From assembly GCA_021432655.1 (NCBI GenBank), contig MU271507.1, positions 1 through 33,382 of the forward strand: a DNA stretch of 33,382 nucleotides, written 5' to 3'. Below the pieces are notes generated by a model. It searched no databases. It had not been told where the DNA came from and saw nothing but the letters and a program-made list of their open reading frames with translations. This document shows, in pieces, positions 1,377 through 29,800 of the stretch (its first letter is position 1; every line of letters starts with the position of its first letter). This DNA is from Atractiella rhizophila. Taxonomy: Eukaryota. Both the position numbers and the translations under genes were made by a program.

Positions 1377-4300
1377 TCATGTGAACGTTATCTTGAGATT
1401 TTGGCCTCTCCTGAGCAACACGGCAATCTCTGTGCCACTTCGCTGGATCACACCAGCGCCTTCGGCGCGCTTGCCTTGAAATGTGTTCGAGATCAAAGCA
1501 ACTGTCCGATCTTTGACAGCTTTGTCCGCGATGAGCTGGATGCTCTGAGGTACACTGTTCTCCCAAACAAGAGAGATTCCAATACCATCTCTGGCCCTGC
1601 CGCCCGTGAAAGAGCCTGATGGCCAAGAAGGAGACAATGCAGGCAGAATCGTGATACGGGTCTCGTTTCGGAACCTGCGGCAGATCAGACTGTGCCTGCT
1701 GATATGACAGCAAGATATGAGGACAATGAACGCACTCAAGCGTTGAATCAAGTGACCGATAAAGCATGTTCACCACAGCTGCTGGGGCTCCACCATTGGC
1801 ATCCTAGGCAAAGCGGCACAACTTGTCATATATCTCTATACGAAGGGGCTACTCACAAACTGGAACAGTGCCTTGTGTCCGCTATACATCGACAGGAGAT
1901 TGCCCGCAAGGTTACTGAGATATCATGAGCAGGAGTGAAAGAGAGGGACATGTCCACTGACGACCATATTGTGTACCGTAGCTGAAACGTCGCCCAAGTA
2001 CTGTTACCCAACGAGCTGGCAACGACAGAACGCATAATCTGCGTTTAATGTGAGCGACGATTCTCAGTCAGCAGAATTGAAACCTTTTCCCAACCAGCAT
2101 CTGAATCGGACGTTCCTTTGCCTGCCATACAGCCCACATAAGCTTTAAAGACACAGCAGAAGAATAAATATAGAAGAAACATTTGCCTCGTGCATTCAAA
2201 GAGACTGCGACAGCGTCCAGCACCGTTTGGTTTTTAAGAGAATCTCCGAGATATCCGCTCACTAGGACAAGTTTATGCTGAGTTTGATCTTGGAAGACAT
2301 GACAGGTTGACAAACCTTGGTAGCCGGGATACGTCCCCAGAAGGTGAGAAAGATGCCTGTGCTGATCTTGCGGGTTGTCGTAGTCAATTTTCCATTCTAG
2401 ATTGACAATAAATTATGCGGACGTCGAAACAATACCAGTACGAGCCTTGAAACTGTCCCCAACTCCCTGTGTTCGTCAGGTATCAATACCTTGTCGGCTA
2501 CGACACGCACCAATTCTGACGCCGTCTGACAGTCGCTCCAAGGTCGACTCCACATTAGAGAGGAATTCTGTGTCGGTCTCTCCAGATAGTTCCCAATCCT
2601 TCCTGATGTCGTGGAGCAGCTCCCAAATCGCATTTTGGTTCCCAGTACACCCGAAAGAAACGGTTGCTACCCATTCTCAGCATAGGCTTTCCGAGATCAA
2701 GGTGCAACATACTCTGCTCCGCTGAGTTGCATGGATTGATAACAAGGGTTGAGTCATTGAAGTACTGGTCTTCTACAAGGAATGACATCTGAAATTTTGC
2801 GTGATCCTGTTGTTCTTTCAGCACATTATGAGAACCGCCAAATACAACTCACCTTCATCAAGGGCCATGTAACTTCTCTGAAGAAATCGACTTCCGATGG
2901 ATTGTAATCTAGGTGATCATGCAAGTGTTGCAATAGCCAAGCAGGCAGAGACGACATATCTGCCCACTGCGAACTAATTTGTCAACTGTGGAATCGTTGA
3001 GGAATTCAATACCTGTGGATGAGAAGGCGATCCCGCCCCCTGCGTGAATGCCTCTCAGATGCAGTTCACAGATGGAAAGACGGTCCCACCTTCATTCCGG
3101 TATATCCAAACACTGAGTAAAGGCACGTCAGCCTAGACAACTGAGCGTCGAGGTCTTACGATTGCTTTCGGTATGGGCCGTGTATCCGCTGGCATTATAA
3201 AGAACTTGTGCGGTCTCCGTCCCACGATCTTTCAGCGCGTACTGCAATTGTTGACCTTTACTGAGAAGGAATTCGCTAAAGCAAAAGATGACGACATACG
3301 AGCATCCAGTAACCCATATTCTCAATCCCTTCCCCAATCCCTGTTGTCTCTCCAGCCCATTGATACATTTGAATATTAATATCGAGATGGTAATCTAACT
3401 CTTCTTAGCTTCTAAATATCGCGAGAGAAATAATTACCTGCTCCCCAAGGACCTAGAATATGGATTTCAGCAAGGAATAATCCCAAGTAAAGCGGCAGCA
3501 ATCATACCCGAGACATCTTGTAACCAAATTCCTTGAAGATTGGGAGGCAGGTTATGATGAGGTCGATCCTTTCCCTTTCGCGCACTGCTGATCAACAGAT
3601 GCCTCCCAAAATTGAAAACATTCCATTCGAGTAAAGCGTTCCCGACCGAATAGTCGTAACGTTCAGTCAGCTGATCAGTTGGCGTGTTGATGTCTTCCTC
3701 GTTAGATGACTGCCCAATATCCAACTTGAAGGCACCCGAGAGAGCAGCGTAGTCTTGGATGTGTTCAGCTACTCGTCACTGTTAACTAACTTGAGACGGT
3801 GACGGCGGCAGAAGACGAACCCAGTAAATCGTCAAAACTTTTCAAGCTTGCCACGTTCACGTTCGACACCGGAAGGGTACTGGCTTCGTCATCGCCGCGA
3901 CAAGAATATCCGCCATCCTTTCCACAACGAGAGAGGTCAAAGTTGGTCTCACCACTCCAAACAACCCGACACTCCCTAGCTCCTGTCACCAGTACTTTCG
4001 CTCCGTCTGCATTGTCCTCGCATTGAACGGCCGCTCTTTCGTCGGCATGCACCGATGCCAAGATACCATACGACATAGAATCCACTCCGTACGTGTCGTT
4101 TGTCACTTCTCCTCCAAGCCAGAGCGCTGCCGACACCTTTGATGTCTGTTCCGAGACACATTTTGCCTTCGGAACGAAAGACATAGGAGTTCCCAAAGTG
4201 TAAGTGAAGTTGATGGGTATGGAAGAGAGAGTGTTGGTCGCGCAGAGACTGGCGGGGTATGAACAGAATGAGACACTGGACAGACTTTTAGTTTGCTATT

Positions 4301-6479: not shown

Positions 6480-8261
6480 ATGAAAGCACCTAAACTGTTC
6501 CTCACCTTCTCTCCGCCTCCCTCGCCCTCGCCCCTTCTCCCCTCGCACCCGCCCCACGCCCACTCCCAGTCGCTGCCCCTCACCCCCACGCGCACCATTC
6601 TCAGCCCGCCGATGGACGTGATGCCCTCCGCGGTCAACCTCAGGCCGGATGCGTCGACGAGTGCGCAGCGGATCAGAGCGCGGAGCGTGACGAATGGACA
6701 GACCCAGGACGCGGGCAATCCGAACTTGCAGCCGGCGGTGGCGAAGGTGGAAGAGTCGAGCGAGGACTCGTCGAATGAGGGAATGGATGTGAAGGCCGGG
6801 AGTGGAATCGGGGACGAGGCCGGATCAGCGCTCGCTCTTTTACAGGGAGGTGTGTCGATGAAGGGGAAGGAGAGAAGGAGGGAGAATGGGAGCGATGTGT
6901 CGTTGGAGATGGACGATCTTCTCTCGGAAGAAGCATCCACCTCTTCCACTCCGCCCACGTCGAACCCTCCCTCCGATCCAGATACATCCAAACCGACATC
7001 CCATCTCCCTCCTCCGTTACTCGAGCCTCCGATCATACTCGAACCGGGAGTGTTGCGGAGAGGGCTCCTCATATTATCCGTAGTCTTCCTCTCCTCCCTC
7101 GCAATCTGTGCTTTCCTCGTCTCCACGTTACCAGCTTTGAAGATCCCACACGAAGCGAAGGATGTGCTGGGTATATTTAAAGGCCTACAAGAGTACCGTA
7201 CGAGTTCATGGAGTGCCGAGGTGCACGTACTCTCCGTTCTATGGTGTGTATATTTTCTCTTTCTTTCCCCTTTTTTTTGCTTTGTCAATGAGGGCTGGAG
7301 TGACGGCTGATGTTCGGCTATTTGGGAACAGCGTGTTGCTCCTCTTCAAACAAACGTTTTCCATCCCTGGAAGCATCCTCATGAACATGCTCCTCGGCGC
7401 TCTCTACTCCACCTGGGCCGCCACACTCTACTCCTGTCTCCTGACCGCTCTCGGCTCACTCTTTGCCTACGAGCTCGCTCGGATCTTCTCTCCTCTCGTT
7501 CGTCCTCCCCTCCCTTCTCTTTCTCTCACTCACTCACTAAATCTCATGTATTGGATGCGTTGGGTATGTTATAGGTATCATACTACCTCCCCACCCCGCT
7601 CTCACTCACCAAACGCACCCTCCCCTCGCCCACCTCCTCCCAATTCACCTCCTCCCTCCTCCTCGCCCGTCTCTTCCCCCTCCTCCCCTACTCCGTCCTC
7701 AACCTCGTCTCCGGCGTCCTCCACCACCCCCGCCAACCGTTCTTCTGGACGATCGTCGTCGGCAGCTGGCCCTACAACTACGTCACCACCCAGTGCGGCG
7801 AGATCCTGGCCCTGGCCGGCGCGAGCGAAGAGGGCATCGGAGGCATATGGAATGCGAGGATGGTCGGAAAGCTCTTGTTTGTCAGCTTGGTCTCTACCGT
7901 CCCTCTGGTGGCGAAGAACCAGCTGCAGAGAGCGGTGACGGCGCTCCTTGCCCATGTCAGTCTCTTGACCGGAGCCGGGAATGGGGTGGGAGGGAGAGGA
8001 GATGGAATTGGGATGGGAAGTCTGGGAGGAGGGAGGAGGATGTCGGGGAGGGAGAGGAGGAGGAAGAATAGGAGCGACCTTTCTGGAATCGGAGGGGGTA
8101 GGACGTATGGGCACGTGCCGAGGAAGAGCGCGGTCATTGTCGGCGGATTTGCTGGAGCAGATGGGAAGGGGAAGGGGAAAGGGAGTGGAAGTGGAAATGC
8201 TGGGAGGGGAAGGAGCGGGACGGGACGGTTGGAGGAGGGATGGTTTGAACAGGGTCAGTAG
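6480..8261 (+). CDS. VTT/SNARE-associated Golgi (DedA superfamily) membrane protein, TMEM41/TVP38-like
   Basis: Three exons (6480-7243, 7332-7497, 7575-8261). Motifs FKQTFSIPGSILMNMLLGALY, LLARLFPLLPYSVLNLVSG and FFWTIVVGSWPYNYV. Long Pro/Ser-rich N-terminus and Gly/Arg-rich tail. The start codon could alternatively be an in-frame upstream ATG (6318 onward). Confidence 0.85.
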
Positions 8262-9383
8262 ATGCTGAGGATTGTTTTTTGTGGCCGTTTTTGGGGATAG
8301 AGAGGTGGAGGTGGAAGTGGGAGGAGAGGATATATAGTCCATTGGATTATTTATGTATTATCTTTTACAGTAGTAGTATTTTTCTGTGGTAATTGTCGAC
8401 CCAACATCTTTTTCTTCCCATCTTTACATGCATCTTTACCCATAGTCGAGGTGGAGATTCCGCGTTTTACTCATCCGGGAACCATTTTGTTTTGGTGATT
8501 GAAACGACCAAGCTGACGATGCATCACTGCCAACTCTATCTCGTGGACTGGTATAATAAAAGGAGCTAACACACCAATGCAGGGCTTGTTTATGATGCAC
8601 AGAGGGAATTAATGCCGTGCGCGTATTGAGATAAGTGCGTTTTCCTTTCTCCATCAATCTCTCACTGGGTTGGTCTCCGTCGTGCACGTTGGGACAGTTC
8701 GCTAGTGTTCAAGTTGATCAAGCGAGCAAGGAGAGGTACTTTGACTCTGAGAGAGTCGCGCAGGTTCTTGCTAGCGAGAAAAGATGCTCCTCTACTCGTC
8801 CTCATAAAGTAAAGTGGAGCCATTATTATCAACGTTCAGATGTGTTCGCTCGCTTAGCGTTGTTCGTTTCGCAAACGTTGCTTTGCTGGCTGAACGAGAT
8901 GAGGAAGGAATCTCCAAGGAAGAGGAGGATGTTCAAGGGGGTGGGTTGAATGGGTGAGGAACCAGGGGATGAGTTACAGTGGAGAATGAAGGAAGCTGCT
9001 CTCAAAGCTATTGGGGATTCATTAATATTCATTCCTGATCTTGGAAACTTTGTGTTTGATGAAATGACCCTTCTGTGGGCTTACGTTGAGAGTTCTACAA
9101 CGAGGTCGAATAAAGGAGAAGATTAGAATGACCACCAGCGTTCAGCTGACACATTCTGTTCTGGCTCCCCATTTATCCTCCTGAGGTTTCAGGTCACTCG
9201 TCCAAGCTTTCATGAAAGAGAGATATGCTATTGCACATTACTAAGAAAGATATACAAATGTTGGCTGGAGAAGAGGCGTAATAGGTATTTTTACAAGTGG
9301 CTAGCAATCAATGACTTGTTTCCACCCCGATTGACACGCCAGTTTCGTCTCTGGGGGAGGGCAAGGACTAGCAAACGATAGAC

Positions 9384-9935: not shown

Positions 9936-10386
9936 AAGCACGCATCATCGCTGCTATTTTCAAGCTTCATCCTTGTGCTCTACACCTCACCTGACCTCCC
10001 TCTACTTATCCTCCCCCCATTCGTTGAACCGCACACGTGGATGTAATCCGGTCCATCGACCCCGCGGAGAGCGATGCCGTCCTGTATTCTTGGGTTTGAA
10101 TTGGCTTTCCTCACGCAAGCAACAGCCAAATGAACAAAAGGCGATCTATCTACGGATCAGCGCTGAAGCGCTTAGGATCAATTCATCGATCTATCGCTTG
10201 CTTATCCACTCTTCATTCTCCCAAGAAGCGAGGCGGGAATTAATAGACACGCGGAGCCATGTCCTTACCATCCTCATGCGTCCTGTACGGTCCGAAGTAT
10301 GGCAATACTCCCTTACTTTATAACGGAGGCTTATTGGTGTCTGTCTCCATGAATCTGTGAAGCCAAGTCCATCTAGACCATAGACC

Positions 10387-13055
10387 ATGCTCCAGAACGC
10401 ATTCTTTGCCTTTATGGCCTTGCAGGCCATCGCGTACGCTGCTTCTATCCACACTGGTACCAGCACTGGTTGGGATGACCCGGTGCTGAAGGAGAAGTTG
10501 AAGAGAGCAGAGTTTCACTCCGTCTACAACGGCTCTGGGGAGCTGGGAAAGAGAACGACGAATGAATGTGGAGCTCAATGCACTAGTATGCATTCCTCTA
10601 ACGGGCATGGGTCTATGAGCTGACAACTTCTGCAAAAGCCTTCTGCTACACGGGTGCGTTTTTGACCCATGCTACGCCTAAAGGAAGAAACGTTTAAAGA
10701 ATGGTTGATGTGATCACAGGGGATGCGGGTACTGGTGTGTACTCCCTTTTCTTTGAAGTAGACCAGGCTGAAGTGTTCTCTCGAAGGTCCCAACACAGGA
10801 GACTGTGCGGATATTGGCGGCATGATTAGCGTGGGCGTGTACGGCTCTCAGTTCACAACGAAAGCAGGACAGGAAACTTCCATCGTCAAAAACTCTTGCA
10901 AGACCTTTTTCCACAAGTCCGCCGTTTATGCTATTCCTGCCAAAGTTGACAATGGCGCTTTAGCCAAGCCTCAGATGGACAAGATGTGTGTTGATATTCC
11001 TAAGCACCTACACTGTATTCAATGGATTTCAGGCTGTCTATTGCACGGCAGACCTTGGTATGTTCTTTCAAATTTTGCAATGTTTCTAGATTGTTTAACG
11101 GTTTCATGAAGCTGCTGTAAACAACTACATCGCGAACAATTGTGCTGCTGCACAGAATGCACACGGTGGTATTTGTGTTTCTGGCGATGGCAGATTCTAC
11201 ATCGAGACGATAAATTCCTACAATCAAGGTCCTTTTGCTTCAGGTTCGTAATTGCTTCTTTTACCGTTGAAATGTTTGGGCTGACCCGTAGACGAAGTGA
11301 ATCTCCCTTTTGCTTCCGGGAAGATTCGAGGTGTCAACCTGTACGCTTTGTCCTCTATCCCCCGCAAATTGTTTCATCGTTTAAACAAGAGGAGGACTGT
11401 TTGTCGTTGAGCCCTGGTTCGTTCTTCGATATCCATGCCCGGTTAAACTGACCTCTAGATAGGATGATGGGTGGAGAATGGGCTAGAATGGTGCTTTCTA
11501 TCCACCCTACCGACTAATATTGATAAAACGTAATGTAACAGGGCTGCGATGGGACAAATGACGAATGGCAGTGTATGACGGAGCGAAATGCTCAAGCTGG
11601 ATTTGAATCACACTGGGACCAATGGTTGCTGGTCCAGATCTACGCCAGAAGAAACATGCTAATTGTGCATTTAGGATCACCGAGCAAGACATAATACAGA
11701 TCGCAAACTGGGGATTGAATACTGTTCGCATCCCTGTCGGGTAGGCGCTCTGGTTTCTCATTTGTTTAGCCAATTGCTTTTGACGATCGGTAGATACTGG
11801 ATCGTGGATGGGGCGAGAGCTGCCTCTGATCCATATGCGACAGGAGGTTTCAGCCGTCTTCAGCGCCTACTGCAATGGTGCAACACTCACAATGTTTACG
11901 CCATCATCGATCTTCACGCAGCGCCTGGAGTCTCTACTCCCAATCAACAATTCGCTGGTCATTCCGTCCCCGCTTCTCAGGTTGGATTCTACAACGAGGA
12001 TAACTTTGGAAGAGCGAAACTTTTTCTCTGGAATATCACGACTCATAAAATAACAGACCCATCTTTTGCCGCGGTTTTCGCTCTTGAAGTTCTCAACGAA
12101 CCTTGGACGCAAAACACTGGCAGCCCATCCAACATCGGCCTGATTACTTCCTACTACCCGACAGCTTATCAGACTATTCGAAGCCGAGAGCAAGAGCTCG
12201 GGAGGACATGCTCAAATACGGGAACTCCTTACAAACGATCTTTCGACAAGCGAGCCTCTTATACCGACTGCCTCAACATCCTGTTCATGGACACGAATTG
12301 GGGCAGTGGCGATAGTGCTACATTCCTGCCTGGATTGAGTCGTAAGGTTTTCTTTCACATTTCCAATGTCGTTCTCACACTATTGCACTTTAAAAAGATG
12401 TTATGTTTGACGACCACCGATACTTCGCATACAGCCCTGACCTTGATACCACTGGCGAAATTCTCTCGTAAATCTTCCAAATTCTGAAGTGTGCTCTGAT
12501 CTGACCCGCTTTCTATCGCAGTGCCGCTTGCGACACCAATCCTGTGAAGCAAGGTGCCGCTCCCAAGGTCTTTGGGGAGTTCTCGTCAGTTCTTACCTCC
12601 TAACGCGAATTTTTTTGGACCTTTCTGTCCAGGCTGGCTACGACGAATCAGAATGGAGATCTGAACACTGGAAACACTGCTTTCTACCAAAATTATATGA
12701 ACCGCCAAATTCAGACTTATGAAAAGGTGAGTTTTCCTTTTATTGAGCCCGCTTTATACTCACAATTATACAGGGTATTGGATGGAGTACGTTCCTTCTC
12801 CGGAGACTTCTCAACTCTGATGATGCAACCTATAGCGTTCTGGAGCTACAAGACGGAGACCGACTATCAATGGTCTTATATCAAGGGTTAGTGGCTAGAT
12901 TTGGTTGATATTCGAAGTCTCCCTAACATTTCCAACGTGTCCAGGGGTTCAAGCAGGGTATGTCATCCTTTTGTTGCGTTTTGTTGATTCAAATCGTTCT
13001 TGCCAGTGTCATTTCTTCCAACGCAGCCACAATGGCTTCTGCGGGTACTTGTTGA
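10387..13055 (+). CDS. Secreted GH5 beta-glucanase (most like GH5_15 endo-beta-1,6-glucanases) with an N-terminal Cys-rich domain; ~19 introns
   Basis: Signal peptide MLQNAFFAFMALQAIAYA. Spliced motifs GKIRGVNLGGLFVVEPW, HWDQWITEQD...GLNTVRIPVGYW, DLHAAPG, LEVLNEP (acid/base Glu), YYPTAYQTIRSREQELG, FMDTNWGSG, FDDHRY, VFGEFS (nucleophile Glu) and WSYKTE. Stop TGA at 13053-13055. Confidence 0.9.
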
Positions 13056-13275
13056 TACAACGGATCTTAAACCTCGAAATCAAGAATTATGTACTGTCTT
13101 TTGTATGATCGATAACGTCAAGAATGCAAATTCGCAATCAGAGAGCCTCTCCTGGAGATACCCTCTCACCTGCGTCAGAGCCAAAATGGCAAACACAGGG
13201 AAAGAGTGAGTTTTGCCAGAATTTAGCCCCAGTGTAACATCGAATCTCTAGGAAGTAAGGCGGCTTCGATAATGT

Positions 13276-18179: not shown

Positions 18180-19052
18180 TTTCAACAATGTGTAGGGATA
18201 TCATCAAAGCTTTTTGATAGACTGTGCAATCCTGATCTCCCGGTTTGCTCATCATTCTGTCTGTCATTTGGATTGTATCTCTCAGTTTGGGTCGCACTCA
18301 TTCGAACGAGTTGAAGAGGTTCGTCAAGGATCTTGTCACCCGACGAGAGTAAAGCGAGAGAGGAAGAAAATAAGGAAGTTCAGCATGTTTGATTTCTAAG
18401 ATTTTCCCCTTTGTTCGCTATTTATATATTTTTGTAACATGGTACATGGAGCTTGTAAACCTCTGGCTGTAAAGATATATTGGTCTCGTTATTCCTATCT
18501 TATGACACGTAAATTTTCTTCAGAAGCACGAATCATTTTGGAGACTGGTGCTGGAGATTTGCACTTGAGGGCGGAGGAGACATAGACAAAGAAGTTGCAG
18601 CCAAGGATCAATTATTGTTGGAGGCTTCGCGATCGCGACGACGAATGCCATGAATGCACCTGTCAGTTCAACAATTGTTGAGGGAAACAAGAATGATAAT
18701 TGCAGTGTCGGCAGAGAAAGGAGTTGAAGAAAATGCATCAAAGATTGGAATGGTATCGATATTGATGGAAATAATGAAACTTCCTTTCTAAACCTACACC
18801 AACTCTTCAAGTTCAAGAAGGCCGCTAAAAGTACATTAGACAATACTGTCCTTCAAAAACAAATAGGCTACAGTGATCGAAATCTCGAAGGGAAAAAGAG
18901 GTAGGGAGAGAAGATGTTGCGAAGGGGACTCGAAATTAACGAGAAACAAGGAGACAACGCCACAGTGGCTTGTAACGAGCGACTTGGAAATGCGAGAGCA
19001 AGAAGGGAGGATGATTGATTCTGTCCGTCTGTCCGTCTAATGGCAGATTTTG

Positions 19053-22000
19053 TTATTCCATCTTTGGACGATGGGAGGTGTCGGCTCCACGTATGAAGGA
19101 GGTGAGAAAGTTGAGGAATCGATCGCCGTATTCGTTCGGCGGAACTGCAGATATCATATGCTGCATCCGTCCAATCAGTTGGGAAACTCCAGAAAGGGTA
19201 ACAGGACAGACGTACTTTATCGTGTTGAATACCTTTGAAGAAGTGTTCTATCCTCTTGACAGAGTTGTACGGGGTCAAAATATCAATTATACCTACACGC
19301 GCCATACAGGATTGTCAACATTCTCCACTAACTATCCCTACGGTTGAAGGAGAGGACGAACCAAGGTAATAAATAGTATCCAACGGCTTATTCTCTCCAT
19401 CCGTAGCCCTAAACCCTCCCTCGTCCTGATAAAAGATCAAGTGTTTCCTCTCCGCTCCTTCCTGCTCCGGTAGGCCGCTCTTTGCATCGCTCAAACTCTT
19501 GGGATCTGCTTTATGAACCGCCTTCCTCAGCGCGCTCGCTTGTTGGATCATCGTCGGCTTCCTCCGTACTTTAACGGTATCGGGCTATCGTCACACAACA
19601 ACGACAGACGCAGTCAATATGAATAGAACAACATGGAAGGGTAAAAGATGACGAACCTGGAAAACAGTCAACATCCCGTCCCTCAAATTCTCCTTATTTC
19701 CCCTCCCCAAATCGTGCAACCCGATGAGCAACGAGTAATCCATGATGCCCAACCTCTTCAAGAACTCCGTGTCCCTCTTCAACTGTTCTTCAAAGTACAT
19801 CCTCTTCTCCGGTCCCAGCTCAAAATGCCGTCCTCGATGGAGCCAGTTGAGATCCTTCAGGACTGCTCCTGACTTTTGAGCGGCTTTCTCCTCTGGGTAT
19901 TCACGACCGATCGCTGAACCCTATTCAATCGTCCATCATCAGATCACGATGCCGCTTTGAGAGGAAATTGGGAGAAGAGACAGACCTTAAGATCGTAAGT
20001 CTCGTGAATATCCCTATGAGGAGGGAACAAATTGTTCATGACCAAGAAATGGATCTTCCTCCCCCTAGGCAACTTAACTCTATGAAGCCCATAAAACCTG
20101 CTCAAAAGGGTATGCGGATTTTTAAGGACATGCTGATGGTACTCCTTCAAGACCTTTCTCAAAAACTTGTGTTCGGTATGATGGATCGTCTTGATGATGA
20201 ACCGATAATCCTTCGAGAAGTAAAAGAACGATCCGCTCTTCCCGGGTGAGCCGAGCTCTGACAGGATGTAGTTGGCGGTTAGGGAGAGCAAGTAGTCAGC
20301 GGGATCGATCCGAAAATGGTCTCGAAGTTCGCGGAAGACCCAGGGAGAGTAGTCTTTGAATTTGAAGTCGTACTTTGCGGATGGGGTCAGTTCGTTTCCT
20401 ATGCTGTTGGATGAGGACAACAGGTAACACATCCGTCAGATGTTGGATCAGACAGAGGAAGGATATGACGTACAAATCGAAACTGTATTTATGACATGCT
20501 CCATAGTCCTCATCCACCAGTGGCTTCTTCAACTTTGCCTGCCACCTCGAGACCTACACCAACACATCAATACTTCTTCCTCACAAATAAAGAGGGAGAC
20601 AAACCGCAATTCGAATGCCAGTCAACATATTATACATAAGCACATAATTCGCATGACCCTCCCCAATCAAATTGCCAACCATAACCCTCTGTTCCTCACC
20701 CTCCCTCCCCTCCACCTCCCTCCTCTCCCTCCGTCCAGCACTCCCACTCCTCCTCCTCTTCTCCCTCTCCCTCTCTTTCTCCTTCTCTCTCTCCCTCCCC
20801 TCCTCCACGCTCGCCCTCCTCACATCCGCCTCCATCTCCCTCCTCGCCGCCTCCCTCCCCCTCCTGATCGCCTCAGACCTCAACCTGATAGACGCCTCAA
20901 AATCCTCCGAAGACGTCGTCGTCGTCAACGGACGCCTCGAGTACGCATGCGCCGTCGTGCTCCCTTCTCCTCCTCCTCCTCCTGCCGCAGACGTTGAGGT
21001 GGAGGAGATGTAAGGGAGCGGAAGACGCGGGACGCCGCTTCCCACCGTCCCTGAACTGCCACGACGCATGTGTGCCCCTCCGGCCGCTGAGAGGGTGGAA
21101 CTACGCCGTTCTGTTGCTCCATTCGGTCCGGAGACGGAGTGCCGCTTGGGCGGCGACTGGGTTGGAAGGGTGAGGTAGTGGGATGGAGTCTTTGGTGGGA
21201 GTTGAGGCGGGGAGGGGGTGGTGTTGGCTCGCATGAGGGAGGAGGCGGCAGCTGTTGTTGGGAGGATGAGCTGGTGGTGGTTTGTCGTTGAGGAAGTAGG
21301 GAGATGGGTGGATAGAGGCGGAGAGTAGTGTGAAGATGTGGATGAGGAGGTGGGGAACATGGAAGGGTCGTATGGGATGGAAGACAGGGAGCCAGAGGCA
21401 TCTCGTTTCTGTTTTGGTGGTCGTCGCTCTGATGGATATGGAGCGGAAGGAGTAGAAGGGGACCCGGAGGCGCCGTTTGGTGTTGAGACGGATGTGGAGG
21501 TCGAAGGAGAGGGATCGGTCGGTGACGAACGGAGAGCGAGGGAGGCAGAGGTGGGTGAGTCCGTGATGAGGTGCAACGAGGTCGACTTGGCGTGTCCCTT
21601 AGCCGCCTCGTCGATGGCTGTCGATGTTGAGGCAGACGGCGAGTCTGTTCGCTTGGCGTCTGTTGAAGAAGAAGCAGAAGAGAGGACACGGGAATTGGCG
21701 GTCCTGTCGCTAGGTCCGCTCATCGCTGTGTCCGTCAAAACGGTCAACGCCGTGTCCCAAACACAACTTATGCAAACGAAAAGCAAAAACGCACAAGTCT
21801 GAGGGACAGTGCCCATTCGTTCGTCGATGGGAGCAGGGATGAACTCGACCCCACCCCCTTCGTCCACTTTCAGGCGCAACCGCACCTCCTCCCCGTCCAG
21901 TCCCGCGGCTTCCATCTTCCTCGCAAGCAGCGCTACCGGGTTCACCCCCTCCTCCTCGTCCTGCCCACCCGAGGGGCGACTGGACGTGGAGGGATGGGCG

Positions 22001-22107
22001 ATGGGCTGGGGGGCGAGGGGAGGAGTGGGAATGTCGAGGGACGCCTTCCGCGGCGTCTGCGGTGGAGATGGCGGGAGATGGGGATAGGCGGTCGGTATGG
22101 AGGTCAT
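19053..22107 (-). CDS. MSS4: Phosphatidylinositol-4-phosphate 5-kinase (Mss4/Its3 ortholog)
   Basis: [109 protein letters not shown] and [13 protein letters not shown]. Long disordered N-terminus from ATG 22107; stop TAA at 19053-19055. Confidence 0.96.
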
Positions 22108-23005
22108 GTACAGAGTATTAGCTGAGAGGTAGATAGATGATAGATGCTCGTCGAGAATAGCACAAGAAGGAGAGTGAGTGGTCGGTGTAAAATTGGATGC
22201 CGTCCGCCGGAACGCCGTGCACACACCACGTGACATCACGCGACAGCACATCATAACTCCTGCTAACTCTATATTTTTATTTCGACAAGTGTATATATCC
22301 TTGAGGCCAGTCTTGAGGCAGAAGAGGGCTAGAGAAGGAGGCTGTCGATAAATATACTATACATTGCTCCTGTTCCTGCCTTGTTCCCAGTTGCTGCTCC
22401 CTGTCATGGTCAAGATGGGTTACAGGCTCCAAATCCGCTGCGTTCATGGGATGATAACACGCTCTCTCTTGGACTCAGGCTGAAGGTGAAATACTTGATA
22501 AAAGCGAAGCAGGCAGTGGTCTTGAAGGTTCCATTCGCGAGAGCGTTCAACAGCACCACGGAAGTAACGCTCGCACGAGCGGGGTATCTAATTCCAGTAC
22601 GCTCATCTATCTACCCCCTGACTGCTCGACTAACGAGTCTCCACTACCTTTCCCAGCCTTTTCCCAGTCTTCTCCGCTTGATATTTGACACACCTTCAAG
22701 TGGTTGTGCGCCAAGCCTCGATCCCGTCAACACGTTTATTTTGGGCTCTACCTTGCTCATGGAGGCATCCCTCGAACGAGAGAAGAAGGACGGATTATAC
22801 GGCTGCTCCGGACAGTACGCTTCCTTAACTCGCTACGTCGTGGGACAGAATCTGCAGGTGTTCAAACGTTCTCGTAGGTACGGGAGAGGGGAAGTCTTGC
22901 CTGCTCCTCGCCAGCAGTTAAAAAGAGATGACCCTGGCATCATGATCAATCACCATCCAACGCTTCGTACAGTAGAGGACGTACACCTACTCAAGGCAAG
23001 AACAG

Positions 23006-26864: not shown

Positions 26865-29800
26865 ATGCTTAACCGTCTCAAGAGCTCAGCTGGACTACGC
26901 TCTGCCGAAGTCCAAACCAATGGATCTCGTTCAGAAGTGGGGGATGACAACGGGGAGACGTATGTGCGACCGCCTGAGTTTGATATGGATTTCGTGAACA
27001 AGGAGGATATCGAGGTATTTAGAAAGGTGTGCATTCCTTTGGAAGTAATCCCGAGATTGGGAGCGAGTTCTTGTTACTGCGACCATGTTTGCTGCTTTGC
27101 CCTGCCAATCGTATGCTTCATAGGAAGCTACCTTCCTGCCGTCAATAATGACGCTTTGAAGGTTGCAAGCCTTCTTCTAACAAAGCAGAGACCTGAAATG
27201 ATAGTATGTACGCAATTGTACAAATCATCAACGATTTGAGTAGGTGTCCTGATAGATAGTCAGTTCTAAACGAATGCGCAGACCTCGATTATAAGCCCAA
27301 CTGCTTTATATAAGAGAGAGTCTTGATGCTGATGGCAATGTTCCTACCTCAGGCACTTTCCGTGACAGAACCTGAACCTTCGATCTATCCCCTAACACCG
27401 CGAGAGCGGCGAGTTCAGCATATCTCAGCGGTCTCTGATTTTGCGCCCATAAATCAGAAGGTGTCAAAGAAACGGTGAGTTTTGAGCTTTCAATATTTCC
27501 ACTCCACTGATGCCTCACAACAGCTCAAAAATGCAACGAGTAAGTCCATTCAACTCTAAGCACAAACTAAATCAAATGGTTTTGGTTCCACAGGACGTAG
27601 TTCGTGAAGGATGGGCGTATCCCATTGCTCGATGGCCGTTGATCTTCTTCATTGGCCTTTTCGTTGTTCTTCAATTTTTCTCCTATATCTTGGTGCGGCA
27701 GTTAGTCAACATTATTGAATATTTTAGTGCTTGTACGTCTAATCGTTGCGCCGTTCCCGTTCTCATTACTGAAGTGTTGCACAGGGAGAGGATATCGTGG
27801 CCTGTTACGGTTGCGTTTACGGAAGGCACCTACTTACGATAAATGGAAAGGTTCGTTGTGCCTGACGTATGCCTTGGTAAGAAGTCATTAAACCTTACAC
27901 AGAATGCGCCTTGGATCTAGATCGACACCTTGGCTTGGAGGAGTGGAAGAAGAGCGACGAGAACAGCTATTATGATTGGTCACTATTGCGAAAAATATTT
28001 GAGAATCTTCGGGAACTGGTTGGTTATTCTGGTCAGTGATGGTCAGTGAGCTCAAGAGAAGGTTAGAGAGAACGTGGTGATTACGATGGCGTCCGTTCAG
28101 TCCTAGAAATCTGTCTCCGCTCCAACTTCGCGGGCACAGGTTCGTCCTTCCGATTTTGAACACAGAGACCTAAAGCCCCCCTGTAGAAAGCTTTCGTCTA
28201 TACGCAGAGACACATTTGGGTTCGAAAAATCTGCTCGAACGCTATGTAGACGAAGGCGTGCTTCATTTCGTTTTCTGGTATTCGATGCTTATGATAGCGG
28301 TAGTTGAGAAAAGCGTTACCTTCATTCGCAATGCCCCCACTGACCGGATGTCGACGGAAGAGAAAGCTAGCTTTTTCAAATATGCATCCAAAAACTATGG
28401 ACGGACTGCACTTTGCCTTTCCGGCGGTGCCAGCTTTGGATATTATCACTTTGGCGTCCTGCGAGCAATGTTGGATGCTGGACTCCTCCCTCAAGTCATC
28501 AGTGGTACCAGTGCGGGAGGGTTGGTAGTGCGTGACTTTGTTTTGGCGTGACCGGTGGATAATCATGAATGATTGGTGAACAGGCTGCTTTTGCCTGCTG
28601 CTATAAAGAGGATGAATTGAAGCGACTCCTGATACCCGTAAGCCCCTTTTTTGTCTGTAGTCTAGTCAGAATTCTCATCCATAAATATAGGAGGTGGCGG
28701 AGAAGATTACTGCATGCTCTGATTCATTCAAGGTCAAATCATTTCCCACTGCCCATCCCTCAGAAAACTTATCCGTGGTGTAGGTCTGGTACGCTCGGTA
28801 TCGTAAAACTGGCGCCAGGTTGATACTTTCGCCTCCGACGAAAAAATTGCTAATTAAGAAACAGGTTTGATCCGGTTGAATGGGCTGAGAAGTGTGAGGT
28901 TCTTCCCGAAAAGATTACGCATCTGACAATGAAGAAGGTTCTTTCTGGACACACGTTTGTTGCTTGCTGATGTCTTCACATGGCTGCTTAATTTACGCAA
29001 ACAGGGAAACACTACCTTCAAAGAGGCATTTGAGCGGACTGGAAAGATCCTCAATATCTCAGTGGTCCCAGCTGATCCCCATTCGCCGACGAAACTTCTA
29101 AACTACCTTACGAGTCCCAATGTGATCATTGCTACTGCTGCAATCGCCAGTGCTGCTGTCCCAGGTACGCCCAAAGCCCGACTGTTGCTTTTCTCTAATG
29201 TCCTTTCCATAGGCATCCTGCCGCCAGTGGTACTGCTTGAGAAAGATCGAAACGGGAAGGCACGACCCTACGAATTTCATTCCAAGCACAGGGATGGCAG
29301 TTTGCGTGTAGACATTCCACTGAGTACGTGCGCAGCTCAAAGGCATTTCTAAACTCATATAATCGCAGAATCGTTACATCTGCTCTACAATGTCAACTAC
29401 TCTATCGTGTCCCAAGTCAACCCACATGTTCACCTTTTTTTCTTTCAACCTGTAAGTTGTGTTTGTTACGATAATTACCAGCTAACAGCGAAATACAGAG
29501 AGGGAGTGCTGGCAAACCGGTTGCTCACCGCAAAGGTAAAGGATGGCGGTAGGTTTACATCATTGCTGCAGACAGCTCGTGCTGAACGCGCCATGTAGTG
29601 GAGGATTCTTCCTAAGTGCTGCCGAACAGCTGCTGAAAATCGAAATAGCCAAGAACTTTCGTGTATGCCGGCAGTCCGCATTTGATGTGCTTTGTATAAT
29701 GAGTGGGAACAGATTATTCGAGATCTCGAACTTTTGCCAGAGGTTGGCGGTATGGATCTCGCCGCTGCATTCTTGCAGAAATTCGAAGGTACAGTCACCT

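Follow-up and report, generated by a model that had tools for sequence, protein, structure and literature searches.

A single 20-exon gene of Atractiella rhizophila occupies positions 10387 to 13055 on the forward strand of the window (the whole stretch of 33,382 nucleotides analysed here, contig MU271507.1) and encodes a 561-residue NCBI protein, P0004, in which a putative signal peptide, a putative propeptide ending in LGKR, an eight-cysteine domain, a linker and a glycoside hydrolase family 5 (GH5) domain follow each other in this order. Taken as a whole, the data are best explained, with a probability that we put at about 0.5, by a fused secreted enzyme whose Cys-rich domain would act as a lectin-like binding head.

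P0004, annotated as 'glycoside hydrolase family 5 protein [Atractiella rhizophila]', was recovered letter for letter from the window DNA by a splice search (Table 1). All 19 introns are of the GT..AG type and 46–66 nt long, the large GH5 exon matches the protein at 100% identity, and the protein's 180 N-terminal residues are those spliced from the window. The window's other long open reading frames gave Pfam matches to GH95, VTT-domain, PIP5K and patatin families. An earlier, sequence-only reading of this DNA had proposed that canonical splicing of eight small exons carries the Cys-rich domain in frame into the hydrolase; its frame, its peptide and its seven GT..AG introns (47–66 nt) were reproduced, but exon 8 starts at 11298 and not at 11292. 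Intron 7 is crossed by contigs of three runs (X14, X2 and X3), and in all three the acceptor used puts the start of exon 8 at 11298, so that neither these transcripts nor P0004 contain the residues 'DE' of the peptide as first read.

Splice joints of the gene were seen in the RNA contigs of all four runs examined (13 joints), and introns 1–15 are all covered, since the first joint holds both 15-nt micro-exons between its two sides; at introns 16–19 the RNA contigs show only loose ends reading through the 13-nt micro-exons. One contig (X14 record 7, 421 nt) covers exons 1 to 8, both 15-nt micro-exons included, another (X14 record 6) spans 10300–10505 and reaches the 5' flank, and a third (X2 record 12, 308 nt) starts in exon 6/7, crosses exons 8–10 and enters exon 11, in the GH5 core, differing from the window by one letter in the domain part and by none in the GH5 part. 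This last contig, the only one to bridge domain and GH5, comes from one run (X2) whose status as RNA is an automatic guess, and we argue that it derives from RNA because five introns are missing from it. It provides the RNA check of the domain–GH5 junction, and the annotated protein, the bridging spliced contig and the exact 20-exon reconstruction together bear out the single fused gene that had been proposed.

A similar arrangement exists at a paralogous Atractiella locus, which we compared through its annotated proteins only and which is annotated as two genes, P0012 (domain) and P0005 (GH5), both listing a 46,209-base contig. Residues 17–194 of P0004 show one change in 178 residues with respect to P0012, and the GH5 parts of the two loci are 63% identical (233/370). 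Apart from one of 22 residues, the read-through tail of P0012 is the translation of window intron 8, and P0005 begins inside strand beta1 of the GH5 barrel. The paralogous gene thus seems to be split in annotation because its model reads through intron 8, the split models being the defective ones, and the two proteins are probably, as judged from these overlaps, products of one gene. Since the translation of a short upstream reading frame in the window recurs at the N-terminus of P0012, the near-identical block begins upstream of the ATG. The GH5 paralogues P0007 and P0008 have no Cys-rich domain. We infer that one of two old GH5 paralogues recently received the module from the other, through an event ending near exon 9 (gene conversion or segmental duplication).

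P0004 is presumably secreted, as its signal peptide and Kex2 site, both judged by eye from the sequence, suggest; in the model of the window's protein a helix occupies residues 3–18 and pLDDT is below 50 at residues 16–55, the propeptide region. A Kex2-type protease would cut the propeptide at KR56, and a [KR]R pair lies within 20 residues upstream of the domain in 18 of the 32 family members having the CxxxCxxxC start. The eight cysteines counted in the sequence-only reading were found again, at residues 61, 65, 69, 83, 114, 131, 146 and 157. The linker has pLDDT below 50 at residues 174–185; it contains no dibasic or other evident cleavage site, so the mature enzyme would keep its Cys-rich domain.

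Table 1. Features of the fused gene and of its product P0004 in the window
Feature	Position	Strand	Remarks
5' flank with short upstream ORF	10259..10351	+	24/27 translated residues equal the annotated N-terminus of paralogue P0012
Coding region	10387..13055	+	20 exons, 19 introns, 561 codons + stop; splice search
Exons 1–5	10387-10585, 10639-10653, 10720-10734, 10787-10916, 10964-10985	+	
Exons 6–10	11033-11057, 11112-11243, 11298-11340, 11390-11416, 11463-11490	+	
Exons 11–15	11542-11624, 11675-11740, 11794-12341, 12398-12467, 12522-12584	+	
Exons 16–20	12633-12726, 12774-12786, 12836-12886, 12945-12957, 13007-13055	+	
Signal peptide (putative), residues 1–18	10387..10440	+	Hydrophobic N-terminus; presumed cleavage after AYA
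Propeptide (putative), residues 19–56	10441..10554	+	Ends in dibasic LGKR (KR, 10549-10554); presumed Kex2-type cleavage
8-Cys domain, residues 57–172	10555..11221	+	Exons 1–7; KP4/Hce2/Y3-type alpha/beta sandwich predicted
Linker, residues 173–186	11222..11317	+	End of exon 7, intron 7 (11244-11297), start of exon 8
Intron 8	11341..11389	+	Decides between fusion and two genes; spliced in RNA, joint 11340->11390 in X2
GH5 catalytic domain, residues 187–561 + stop	11318..13055	+	Pfam PF00150 and motifs
NEP Glu364	12098-12100	+	Probable acid/base, from GH5 motifs
GEFS Glu487	12577-12579	+	Probable nucleophile, from GH5 motifs

No Pfam model matched the Cys-rich domain of P0004, whether searched as a whole or as single exons. 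A phmmer search of 1.84 billion representatives (E<=1e-3) gave 45 matches, two of them from Atractiella and 43 other cluster representatives (E 1.2e-18 to 6.4e-4, 27–49% identity), the similarity extending along the entire domain (about 115 residues). These 43 proteins are mostly of 170–230 amino acids, and most have the domain in a C-terminal or nearly C-terminal position. Stand-alone uncharacterised basidiomycete relatives of the kind named in the sequence-only reading do exist, among them Coprinopsis CC1G_07128 and Grifola A0H81_00050. The motifs P..DC, F.NQ, YC and NC.A.QNAHGG.C are conserved, and Cys, Pro, Asp, Asn, Tyr and Gly columns are invariant or near-invariant in the family alignment. 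The CxxxCxxxC start occurs in 32 of the 44 rows, most of which have eight cysteines from there onward, and P0004 carries the pattern CxxxCxxxC...DC...SC...YC...NC...GxC together with QNAHGG/F.NQ. Searched with the family profile, P0004 is recovered at E 2.1e-38, and by sequence the domain is a member of an unnamed, uncharacterised basidiomycete family. Among the papers searched, none names CC1G_07128 or PIIN_06237. Six UniProt accessions of family members are absent from the text supplements of a recent survey, whose KP4 inventory may already include the family, its full cluster tables being outside this comparison (PMC12382754).

The domain occurs with several partners. In Serendipita relatives (P0045, P0058 and P0047) it stands on a Ser/Thr/Pro-rich stalk followed by a single membrane helix, a segment that, in the profile of a divergent subgroup (A2), gave matches to the transmembrane segments of integrin and syndecan; P0018 ends in a long Ser/Thr tail, and P0021, which joins the domain to a dienelactone hydrolase, looks like a merged gene model. 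Only Atractiella proteins, from two loci, combine it with GH5 among the databases searched, which may lack many fungal proteomes; the domain is thus not routinely attached to GH5, in line with the sequence-only reading, and its pairing with a beta-glucan-cutting enzyme is, provisionally, seen nowhere else so far. All the named family organisms outside Atractiella we take to be Agaricomycetes, lineages having been looked up for Serendipita and Atractiella only. A. rhizophila, a root endophyte, belongs by its looked-up lineage to Pucciniomycotina. In a tree of the 50 domain rows with the CxxxCxxxC start (rows without it were excluded), 38 rows form a core clade (SH-aLRT 96) and Atractiella lies outside it, in the unresolved base; this tree holds no evidence for or against horizontal transfer.

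The proposal that the domain is reminiscent of Ecp2/Hce2- or KP4-like folds stood at the level of fold and failed as Pfam Hce2 membership by sequence. The Hce2 model (PF14856, gathering score 25 bits) did not match P0004 (E<=10) or P0012 (E<=1); sub-threshold matches appeared in four of the 43 relatives (15–21 bits, E 3.7e-4 to 0.03) and in P0058 (20.8 bits, E 4.6e-4), and none among 19 further members (P0060–P0078). The KP4 model (PF09044) did not match P0004, and GBD_Y3 (PF22803) matched neither the window protein nor its relatives. Sequence searches of solved structures with P0012 and with the profiles A1 and A2 found no relative, A2 reaching transmembrane helices only. A family-profile search in which the best 8000 candidates were scored returned 23 proteins and reached no Hce2 protein, a result that, at this depth, says nothing on a link to Hce2.

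The predicted structure, in turn, supports a KP4/Hce2/Y3 alpha/beta sandwich at the level of fold. The domain is modelled with pLDDT of about 85–96 in the 99%-identical paralogue P0012 and of 75–87 in the window's own protein. Its best solved match is Zt-KP4-1, also called Zt-NIP1 (8ACX), with a VIA-align Z of 11.2 and an rmsd of 2.8 over 104 of 112 residues (Foldseek E 3.2e-4, probability 1.00, TM by target 0.62–0.69, identity 15–19%). The Y3 lectin of Coprinus comatus (5V6I; Z 9.3, 105 residues) and the LDL lectin of Lyophyllum decastes (4NDS; Z 6.7, 89 residues) come next; both are secreted basidiomycete proteins of the same sandwich fold that bind glycans, according to their PDB titles and to the part of the literature consulted (PMC6368629), but they have no sequence match to the window domain and are not fused to enzymes. 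KP4 of the Ustilago maydis virus (1KPT), of the same general alpha/beta sandwich, scores weakly, within a range common for the method (Z 5.8, rmsd 3.9, 89 residues). Weak, too, is the match to the plant-specific DUF26/Gnk2 proteins (6GRF, Z 5.4; 6GRE; Gnk2 with mannose, 4XRE, Z 4.0), whose Cys-rich sandwich has been related to fungal lectins (PMC6368629). The ESM Atlas model of the exact protein gave TM values of 0.71–0.73 to Hce2-bearing clusters and of 0.60 to a GBD_Y3 cluster. Z values of 9–11 at 13–16% identity between modelled and solved structures show neither homology nor function.

That a GH5 enzyme lies downstream of the domain was confirmed by sequence and by fold. Residues 230–530 match PF00150 (E 3.3e-17, 63.3 bits against a cut-off of 23.5), the motifs NEP (363–365), HRY (451–453) and GEFS (486–489) are present here and in the paralogues P0005–P0009, and the top Foldseek matches are GH5 (beta/alpha)8 barrels (E 5e-16). 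The nearest solved GH5 sequences (E about 1e-27, N-terminal half) and folds include exo-beta-1,3-glucanases of Candida albicans (Exg, 1EQP/1CZ1), Aspergillus oryzae (AoBgl, 8Z2W-Y) and Saccharomyces cerevisiae (Exg1, 1H4P), all at 20–24% identity, and the rutinosidases 6I1A and 6LA0 score as well as these. We take these solved neighbours to be members of GH5_9 and GH5_23. Part of this subfamily assignment can be traced to table 1 of a GH5 classification (PMC3526467). None of these enzymes has the N-terminal domain of P0004. The top feature match (0.96) is a cluster automatically named 'glucan endo-1,6-beta-glucosidase', and the label 'beta-1,6-glucanase-like', used earlier for this enzyme, goes back solely to such a name and is a putative one. 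Most likely, the GH5 part would hydrolyse beta-1,3- or beta-1,6-glucan.

Between a toxin and a glycan-binding role, the modelled fold and its neighbours lead us to favour a binding or targeting module. The domain would be a non-catalytic, lectin-like head, in effect an unclassified carbohydrate-binding module, docking the beta-glucanase on a wall glycan that may belong to a different fungus, to the producer's own hyphae or to the host root; such docking would raise the local concentration of the enzyme on its insoluble substrate. Several observations argue for this role: lectins or a mannose-binding protein account for four of the eight best solved neighbours; the stalked membrane forms of Serendipita and P0018 have the layout of surface sensors or binding heads and not that of toxins that diffuse, which suits the second option of the sequence-only reading, a glucan-binding module, no less than a toxin; the conservation of polar motifs extends from Atractiella to the Agaricomycetes (up to 42–46% identity); and an N-terminal module, a low-confidence linker and a glycoside hydrolase is the layout of carbohydrate-binding modules. 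On the other hand, the single best structural match (8ACX) is an antifungal effector and not a lectin, and the linker differs from many fungal CBM linkers in being short and not rich in Ser/Thr.

This best match is also an argument for a module of antagonism, the explanation put first in the sequence-only reading, which we consider unlikely yet the most serious of those competing with the binding head. The domain would be an antifungal toxin of the KP4/Hce2 type, and the GH5 would open the beta-glucan layer of a competitor to let the toxin reach the membrane, in analogy to Hce2–GH18 chitinase fusions and to zymocin. Zt-KP4-1 inhibits fungal growth, and KP4 structural groups have been proposed to be antimicrobial, in the sections of the survey consulted (PMC12382754); Hce2 lies at the C-terminus of 'class III' GH18 chitinases (PMC7441637, in part), GH5_15 beta-1,6-glucanases have been linked to mycoparasitism (PMC3526467, in part), KP4 itself appears among the structural matches, and the sub-threshold Hce2 matches described above point in the same direction. 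However, the window domain itself has no Pfam Hce2 or KP4 match, lectins are nearly equal in the fold search, the membrane-anchored and Ser/Thr-tailed relatives are unlike released toxins, and the family is well conserved over basidiomycete classes, which would be unusual for arms-race toxins. Moreover, no toxin or immunity family is among the Pfam matches of the window's other long open reading frames, and GH5_15 is no more than a candidate subfamily for this enzyme.

An effector at the host interface, in which the domain would bind and the GH5 trim beta-glucan (wall fragments or callose) in the root apoplast, so that plant immunity is escaped or modulated, appears improbable. Ecp2/Hce2 proteins are described as plant-pathogen effectors in the parts of the two studies consulted (PMC12382754; PMC7441637). 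Spliced contigs of the gene were found in the root metatranscriptome run X1, at several joints, small shares of its sampled words occur in further runs (X4–X13), root metatranscriptomes among them, from which we draw no claim on habitat, and relatives of the domain exist in root symbionts of the genus Serendipita; all this is entirely circumstantial, as the contigs show presence and not level. Most family members, besides, come from genera that decay wood or litter.

Very improbable, in our view, is an intramolecular chaperone or inhibitory pro-domain that folds the GH5 or holds it inactive until removed: its position, preceded by a propeptide with a dibasic site and followed by the catalytic domain, would suit such a role, but no cleavage site is evident in the linker, whose low confidence does not suggest a docked domain, the domain is free-standing in 40-odd cluster representatives and also has non-enzyme partners, and GH5 paralogues do without it. 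An artefact of annotation or assembly, with two adjacent genes falsely merged, as the annotation of the paralogous locus and the merged-looking P0021 might suggest, is largely refuted and hardly credible, because neither a stop codon nor intergenic DNA separates the two parts, exons 8 and 9 are linked in frame across an intron of 49 nt with GT..AG ends, introns 7–10 are spliced out in an RNA contig that differs by 0–1 letters, and it is the split models of the paralogue that are defective.

With the binding head as the preferred reading, the protein can be set beside the systems it resembles. Hce2/Ecp2 proteins, like the domain described here, are small and secreted, with a Cys-rich alpha/beta sandwich, and they are found both free-standing and fused to a wall-polysaccharide hydrolase (PMC7441637, in part); KP4 and ECP2/Hce2 proteins have been placed in one structural superfamily (PMC12382754, in part). 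In contrast to Hce2, the window domain has eight cysteines and conserved polar motifs of its own, lies N-terminal to a GH5 instead of C-terminal to a GH18, and belongs to a basidiomycete family, Hce2 being mainly ascomycete. Among papers that mention both Hce2 and GH5, the titles listed suggest no fusion of the two. The GH5 fusion thus extends, as a variant, the known Hce2–GH18 type of fusion. DUF26 domains, in turn, occur as free secreted proteins or as membrane-anchored ectodomains, like the Serendipita relatives.

Few effector folds are as widespread in fungi as those of the Ecp2/Hce2 and KP4-like proteins, for which we know of no molecular target. A domain of this fold joined to an enzyme with an assayable substrate class offers an experimental handle, with which it can be asked whether the domain binds polysaccharide or kills fungi once the wall is opened. 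Another outcome is the definition of a basidiomycete domain family that lacked annotation; it counts more than 60 proteins here, in enzyme-fused, Ser/Thr-tailed and membrane-anchored forms. The two Atractiella loci, which share a near-identical 5' module while their GH5 domains are 63% identical, present module shuffling in the act. More tentatively, and with some doubt, the domain may found a new lectin or carbohydrate-binding family on the KP4/Hce2/Y3 fold, basidiomycete-wide, captured and recopied in Atractiella as the targeting head of a glucanase. If so, glycan recognition would be a shared property of the fold, including Ecp2/Hce2 effectors and KP4-like toxins, and the membrane-anchored forms of Serendipita would act as sensors of fungal walls or of glycans, as a counterpart to the plant DUF26 receptor proteins.

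The window is fungal, and A. rhizophila, according to the lineage looked up, belongs to Pucciniomycotina. In a protein search with eight hits at E ≤ 0.001 out of 812 candidates, the large exon at 11795-12340, translated to 182 residues, was 100% identical to P0004, a 561-aa protein annotated as 'glycoside hydrolase family 5 protein [Atractiella rhizophila]'. P0004 was rebuilt letter for letter by a splice search, along one path of 20 exons (10387-13055) separated by 19 introns, each with GT..AG ends and a length of 46-66 nt. The path includes four micro-exons (see the table), all RNA-supported: two lie between the two flanks of a contig joint, and two are read in loose contig ends. The sequence-only reading had proposed eight small N-terminal exons; their splicing gives the peptide that it described, with seven of seven introns GT..AG and of 47-66 nt, and the model stood in all but the exon 8 acceptor, which is at 11298 and not at 11292, dropping two residues ('DE'). 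The two candidate AG acceptors of exon 8 are 6 nt apart (11292-11298), and the upstream one adds two residues in frame. The downstream acceptor was used in the three runs crossing intron 7 (X14, X2 and X3), and an alternative isoform via the upstream one, of which none was seen in the contigs of these runs, is possible. We also noticed a short upstream ORF (10259-10357, 31 codons translated) directly 5' of the start codon, at least part of which lies in the 5' UTR, since X14 record 6 covers 10300-10505.

Part of the 10300-13100 region is present in 14 public sequencing runs, and spliced contigs were obtained from all four runs compared (X14, the root metatranscriptome X1, X2 and X3). Record 7 of X14 (421 nt) extends from exon 1 to exon 8, two 15-nt micro-exons being the letters between the sides of its first joint. 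Record 12 of X2 (308 nt) begins in the last part of exon 6, crosses exons 7, 8, 9 and 10 and reaches 68 nt into exon 11. It has one mismatch to the window in its domain part, matches the GH5 part throughout, and derives from the window locus, since the paralogue is strongly different in exon 11. By this contig, the Cys-rich domain and the GH5 core are in one spliced molecule. In all, 13 listed joints cover introns 1-15, and at the last four introns loose contig ends read through the 13-nt micro-exons. Transcript support here means assembled contigs, not reads, the full gene being pieced from several contigs, none of which spans it all; the classification of X2 and X3 as RNA is an automatic guess, for which their contigs without introns argue. 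We conclude that a single transcript encodes a single modular protein.

Features of the window and of the encoded protein P0004
Feature	Position	Strand	Source
GH95 gene	about 1380-4300	-	Pfam on ORFs
VTT-domain membrane protein gene	7575-8258	+	Pfam on ORFs
Four micro-exons, 13-15 nt	10639-10653, 10720-10734, 12774-12786, 12945-12957	+	Splice search and RNA contigs
PIP5K kinase gene	18871-20435	-	Pfam on ORFs
Patatin-like phospholipase gene	near 28174-28548	+	Pfam on ORFs
Hydrophobic leader, putative signal peptide	P0004 residues 1-18
Low-confidence stretch ending LGKR	P0004 residues 19-56
8-Cys domain (Cys at 61, 65, 69, 83, 114, 131, 146, 157)	P0004 residues 57-172
Linker, pLDDT below 50, without dibasic site	P0004 residues 173-186
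GH5 (NEP 363-365, HRY 451-453, GEFS 486-489)	P0004 residues 187-561

The protein would be secreted, its propeptide would be removed at KR56, and the domain would stay tethered to GH5 through the flexible linker. Pfam identified in P0004 PF00150 alone (E 3.3e-17, residues 230-530), and the N-terminal 190 residues gave no Pfam match even at E ≤ 10. The domain is an addition to the enzyme, since in the GH5 paralogues P0007 and P0008 hardly anything separates the hydrophobic leader at the N-terminus from the ...IRGVNLGG barrel strand. The nearest solved sequences to GH5 are the fungal exo-beta-1,3-glucanases 8Z2W, 3O6A, 1EQP and 1CZ1 (E about 1e-27), together with 1H4P (E 4e-18), all these matches covering the N-terminal half only, and the nearest folds are the same exo-beta-1,3-glucanases and the rutinosidases 6I1A and 6LA0 (20-24% identity). 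The best feature match (0.96) is a cluster automatically named 'glucan endo-1,6-beta-glucosidase', and GH5_9 is described in the literature as comprising enzymes that modify the wall, with activity on beta-1,3 and some on beta-1,6 linkages. The earlier description of the enzyme as 'beta-1,6-glucanase-like' is a lead, not a result. A low-confidence GH5 loop (window about 12215-12260, P0004 residues 404-417) holds two KR dipeptides, and dibasic sites recur there in the paralogues P0005-P0008; Kex2-type cleavage within the enzyme may occur at this loop.

At a second Atractiella locus, the domain part (P0012, 229 aa) and the GH5 part (P0005, 372 aa, starting inside the first barrel strand) are both listed on one 46,209-base contig. 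Residues 17-194 of P0004 differ from P0012 at one of 178 positions, and residues 195-561 share only 63% identity (233/370) with P0005. The annotated N-terminus of P0012 equals the translated 5' flank of the window gene (10259-10339) at 24 of 27 residues, and 21 of the 22 residues of its C-terminal tail are those obtained by translating on into intron 8 of the window gene, up to the same stop. A block that begins 128 nt or more upstream of the ATG and reaches roughly to exon 9 is thus near-identical at the two loci; window positions 10259-11416 take in the near-identical 5' flank, exons 1-8 and intron 8. The catalytic domains of the two loci are old paralogues. From this comparison, made via annotated proteins, we infer as the simplest reading that the module was recently transferred to a second GH5 gene by gene conversion or segmental copying. 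The annotation of the second locus as two genes is probably a retention artefact of intron 8.

The domain is a member of a conserved family. A word-indexed search of shorter proteins gave one match among seven candidates, P0012, from the same species, and phmmer, run exhaustively on 1.84 billion representatives with P0012 as query, retrieved 45 proteins at E ≤ 1e-3 (P0012, P0004 and 43 others, mostly of 170-230 aa); a profile search added 20 members among the best 8000 candidates scored. The CxxxCxxxC start is present in 32 of the 44 aligned rows, in which the domain is usually at the protein's end; [KR]R occurs at most 20 residues upstream of the domain in 18 of these 32, and many of the remaining rows have xRQ at that place. 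The named family proteins, all 'hypothetical' or 'uncharacterized', are from genera that include Grifola, Coprinopsis, Trametes, Lentinus, Antrodiella, Jaapia, Galerina, Pluteus, Phlebiopsis, Vararia, Hericium, Auriscalpium, Amylostereum, Marasmius, Gymnopilus and Serendipita; we take all these genera to be Agaricomycetes, the lineage of Serendipita having been looked up. A quick tree built from the 50 rows that have this start places Atractiella outside a 38-row core clade (SH-aLRT 96), with the base unresolved. Among the members found in the searches, a GH5 partner is present in the Atractiella protein only. In P0021, from Antrodiella, the domain is followed by a stretch resembling a translated intron and by a dienelactone hydrolase, probably a merged gene model, and P0018 carries a long Ser/Thr tail. 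In Serendipita P0045, P0058 and P0047, the domain is accompanied by a Ser/Thr/Pro-rich stalk, one membrane helix, with matches to integrin, syndecan and ephrin-receptor transmembrane segments, and a cytoplasmic tail, a layout reminiscent of wall sensors in fungi and of DUF26 receptor proteins in plants.

The domain is predicted to have a KP4/Hce2/Y3 fold. The AlphaFold2 model of the P0012 domain (44-row family alignment), one residue different from the window protein, has a pLDDT of about 85-96 and the order beta-beta-alpha-beta-beta-beta-beta-alpha-beta-beta; in the full-length P0004 model the domain has a pLDDT of 75-87. In Foldseek against the PDB, 8ACX (Zt-KP4-1, formerly Zt-NIP1) had its eight chains among the top nine ranks (best chain: E 3.2e-4, probability 1.00, TM by target 0.62-0.69, 15-19% identity), and the Y3 lectin 5V6I was at rank 8 (E 0.011). 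All-against-representatives structural alignment gave 8ACX (Z 11.2, rmsd 2.8, 104 residues), 5V6I (Z 9.3, 105 residues), the LDL lectin 4NDS (Z 6.7, 89 residues), KP4 1KPT (Z 5.8, 89 residues), the DUF26 structures 6GRF (Z 5.4, 97 residues) and 6GRE (Z 4.5, 103 residues) and Gnk2 with mannose, 4XRE (Z 4.0, 97 residues), with all other rows at Z ≤ 4.4. For the ESM Atlas model of P0004, two clusters of basidiomycete 'hypothetical protein' entries gave TM 0.84 and 0.81, clusters that in part carry Hce2 gave 0.71-0.73, and a GBD_Y3 cluster gave 0.60. Zt-KP4-1 has been shown to have an Hce2 Pfam domain and a KP4 fold and to inhibit fungal growth, and KP4 and ECP2/Hce2 proteins to be groups within one structural superfamily (PMC12382754); DUF26 has been related to the lectins LDL and Y3 (PMC6368629). 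The 'Ecp2/Hce2- or KP4-like' character proposed by the sequence-only reading thus holds at the level of fold (Foldseek, structural alignment and models) and does not extend to sequence-level membership: Pfam on P0004 and P0012 gave no Hce2, KP4 or GBD_Y3 match, and family profiles searched by sequence against solved structures found no relative. Sub-threshold Hce2 matches were observed in four of 43 relatives (best P0045, E 3.7e-4, 21.1 bits where the cut-off is 25), as well as in P0058, and in none of 19 further core members; the Pfam scan of P0012, P0058 and further members also gave unrelated families at E 0.015-0.15.

Pfam was run on 114 of the 124 window ORFs of at least 85 aa, the ten within the fusion gene being left out, and no toxin or immunity family was among the matches. 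ORF fragments at 1380-4295 (-) match the catalytic and the C-terminal domain of GH95 as well as a GH65-N-like domain, and are probably parts of a multi-exon alpha-L-fucosidase-type gene. A 591-codon open frame (20584-22356, -) gave no Pfam match and is probably low-complexity coding sequence. Strong GC skew swings were observed at 7001-9000 (-0.22 then +0.36) and 20001-22000 (-0.26 then +0.26), with GC up to 0.61.

We favour, at a probability of about 0.5, a lectin-like targeting role for the domain, because four of the best eight solved fold neighbours are lectins or a mannose-binding protein, the domain is stalked and membrane-anchored in relatives, polar motifs are kept across basidiomycete subphyla, and the protein is laid out like an enzyme with a carbohydrate-binding module. 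Less probable, yet with real support from the top structural match, an antifungal Hce2 protein, and from the known Hce2-GH18 fusions (PMC7441637), is a domain that acts as a toxin with GH5 as its wall-breaker. Action of the domain-GH5 protein at the host interface, suggested by just the root-derived transcripts and the Serendipita relatives, is improbable. The fusion is real and expressed, and so far unique, and offers an assayable handle on what a very widespread effector fold binds.
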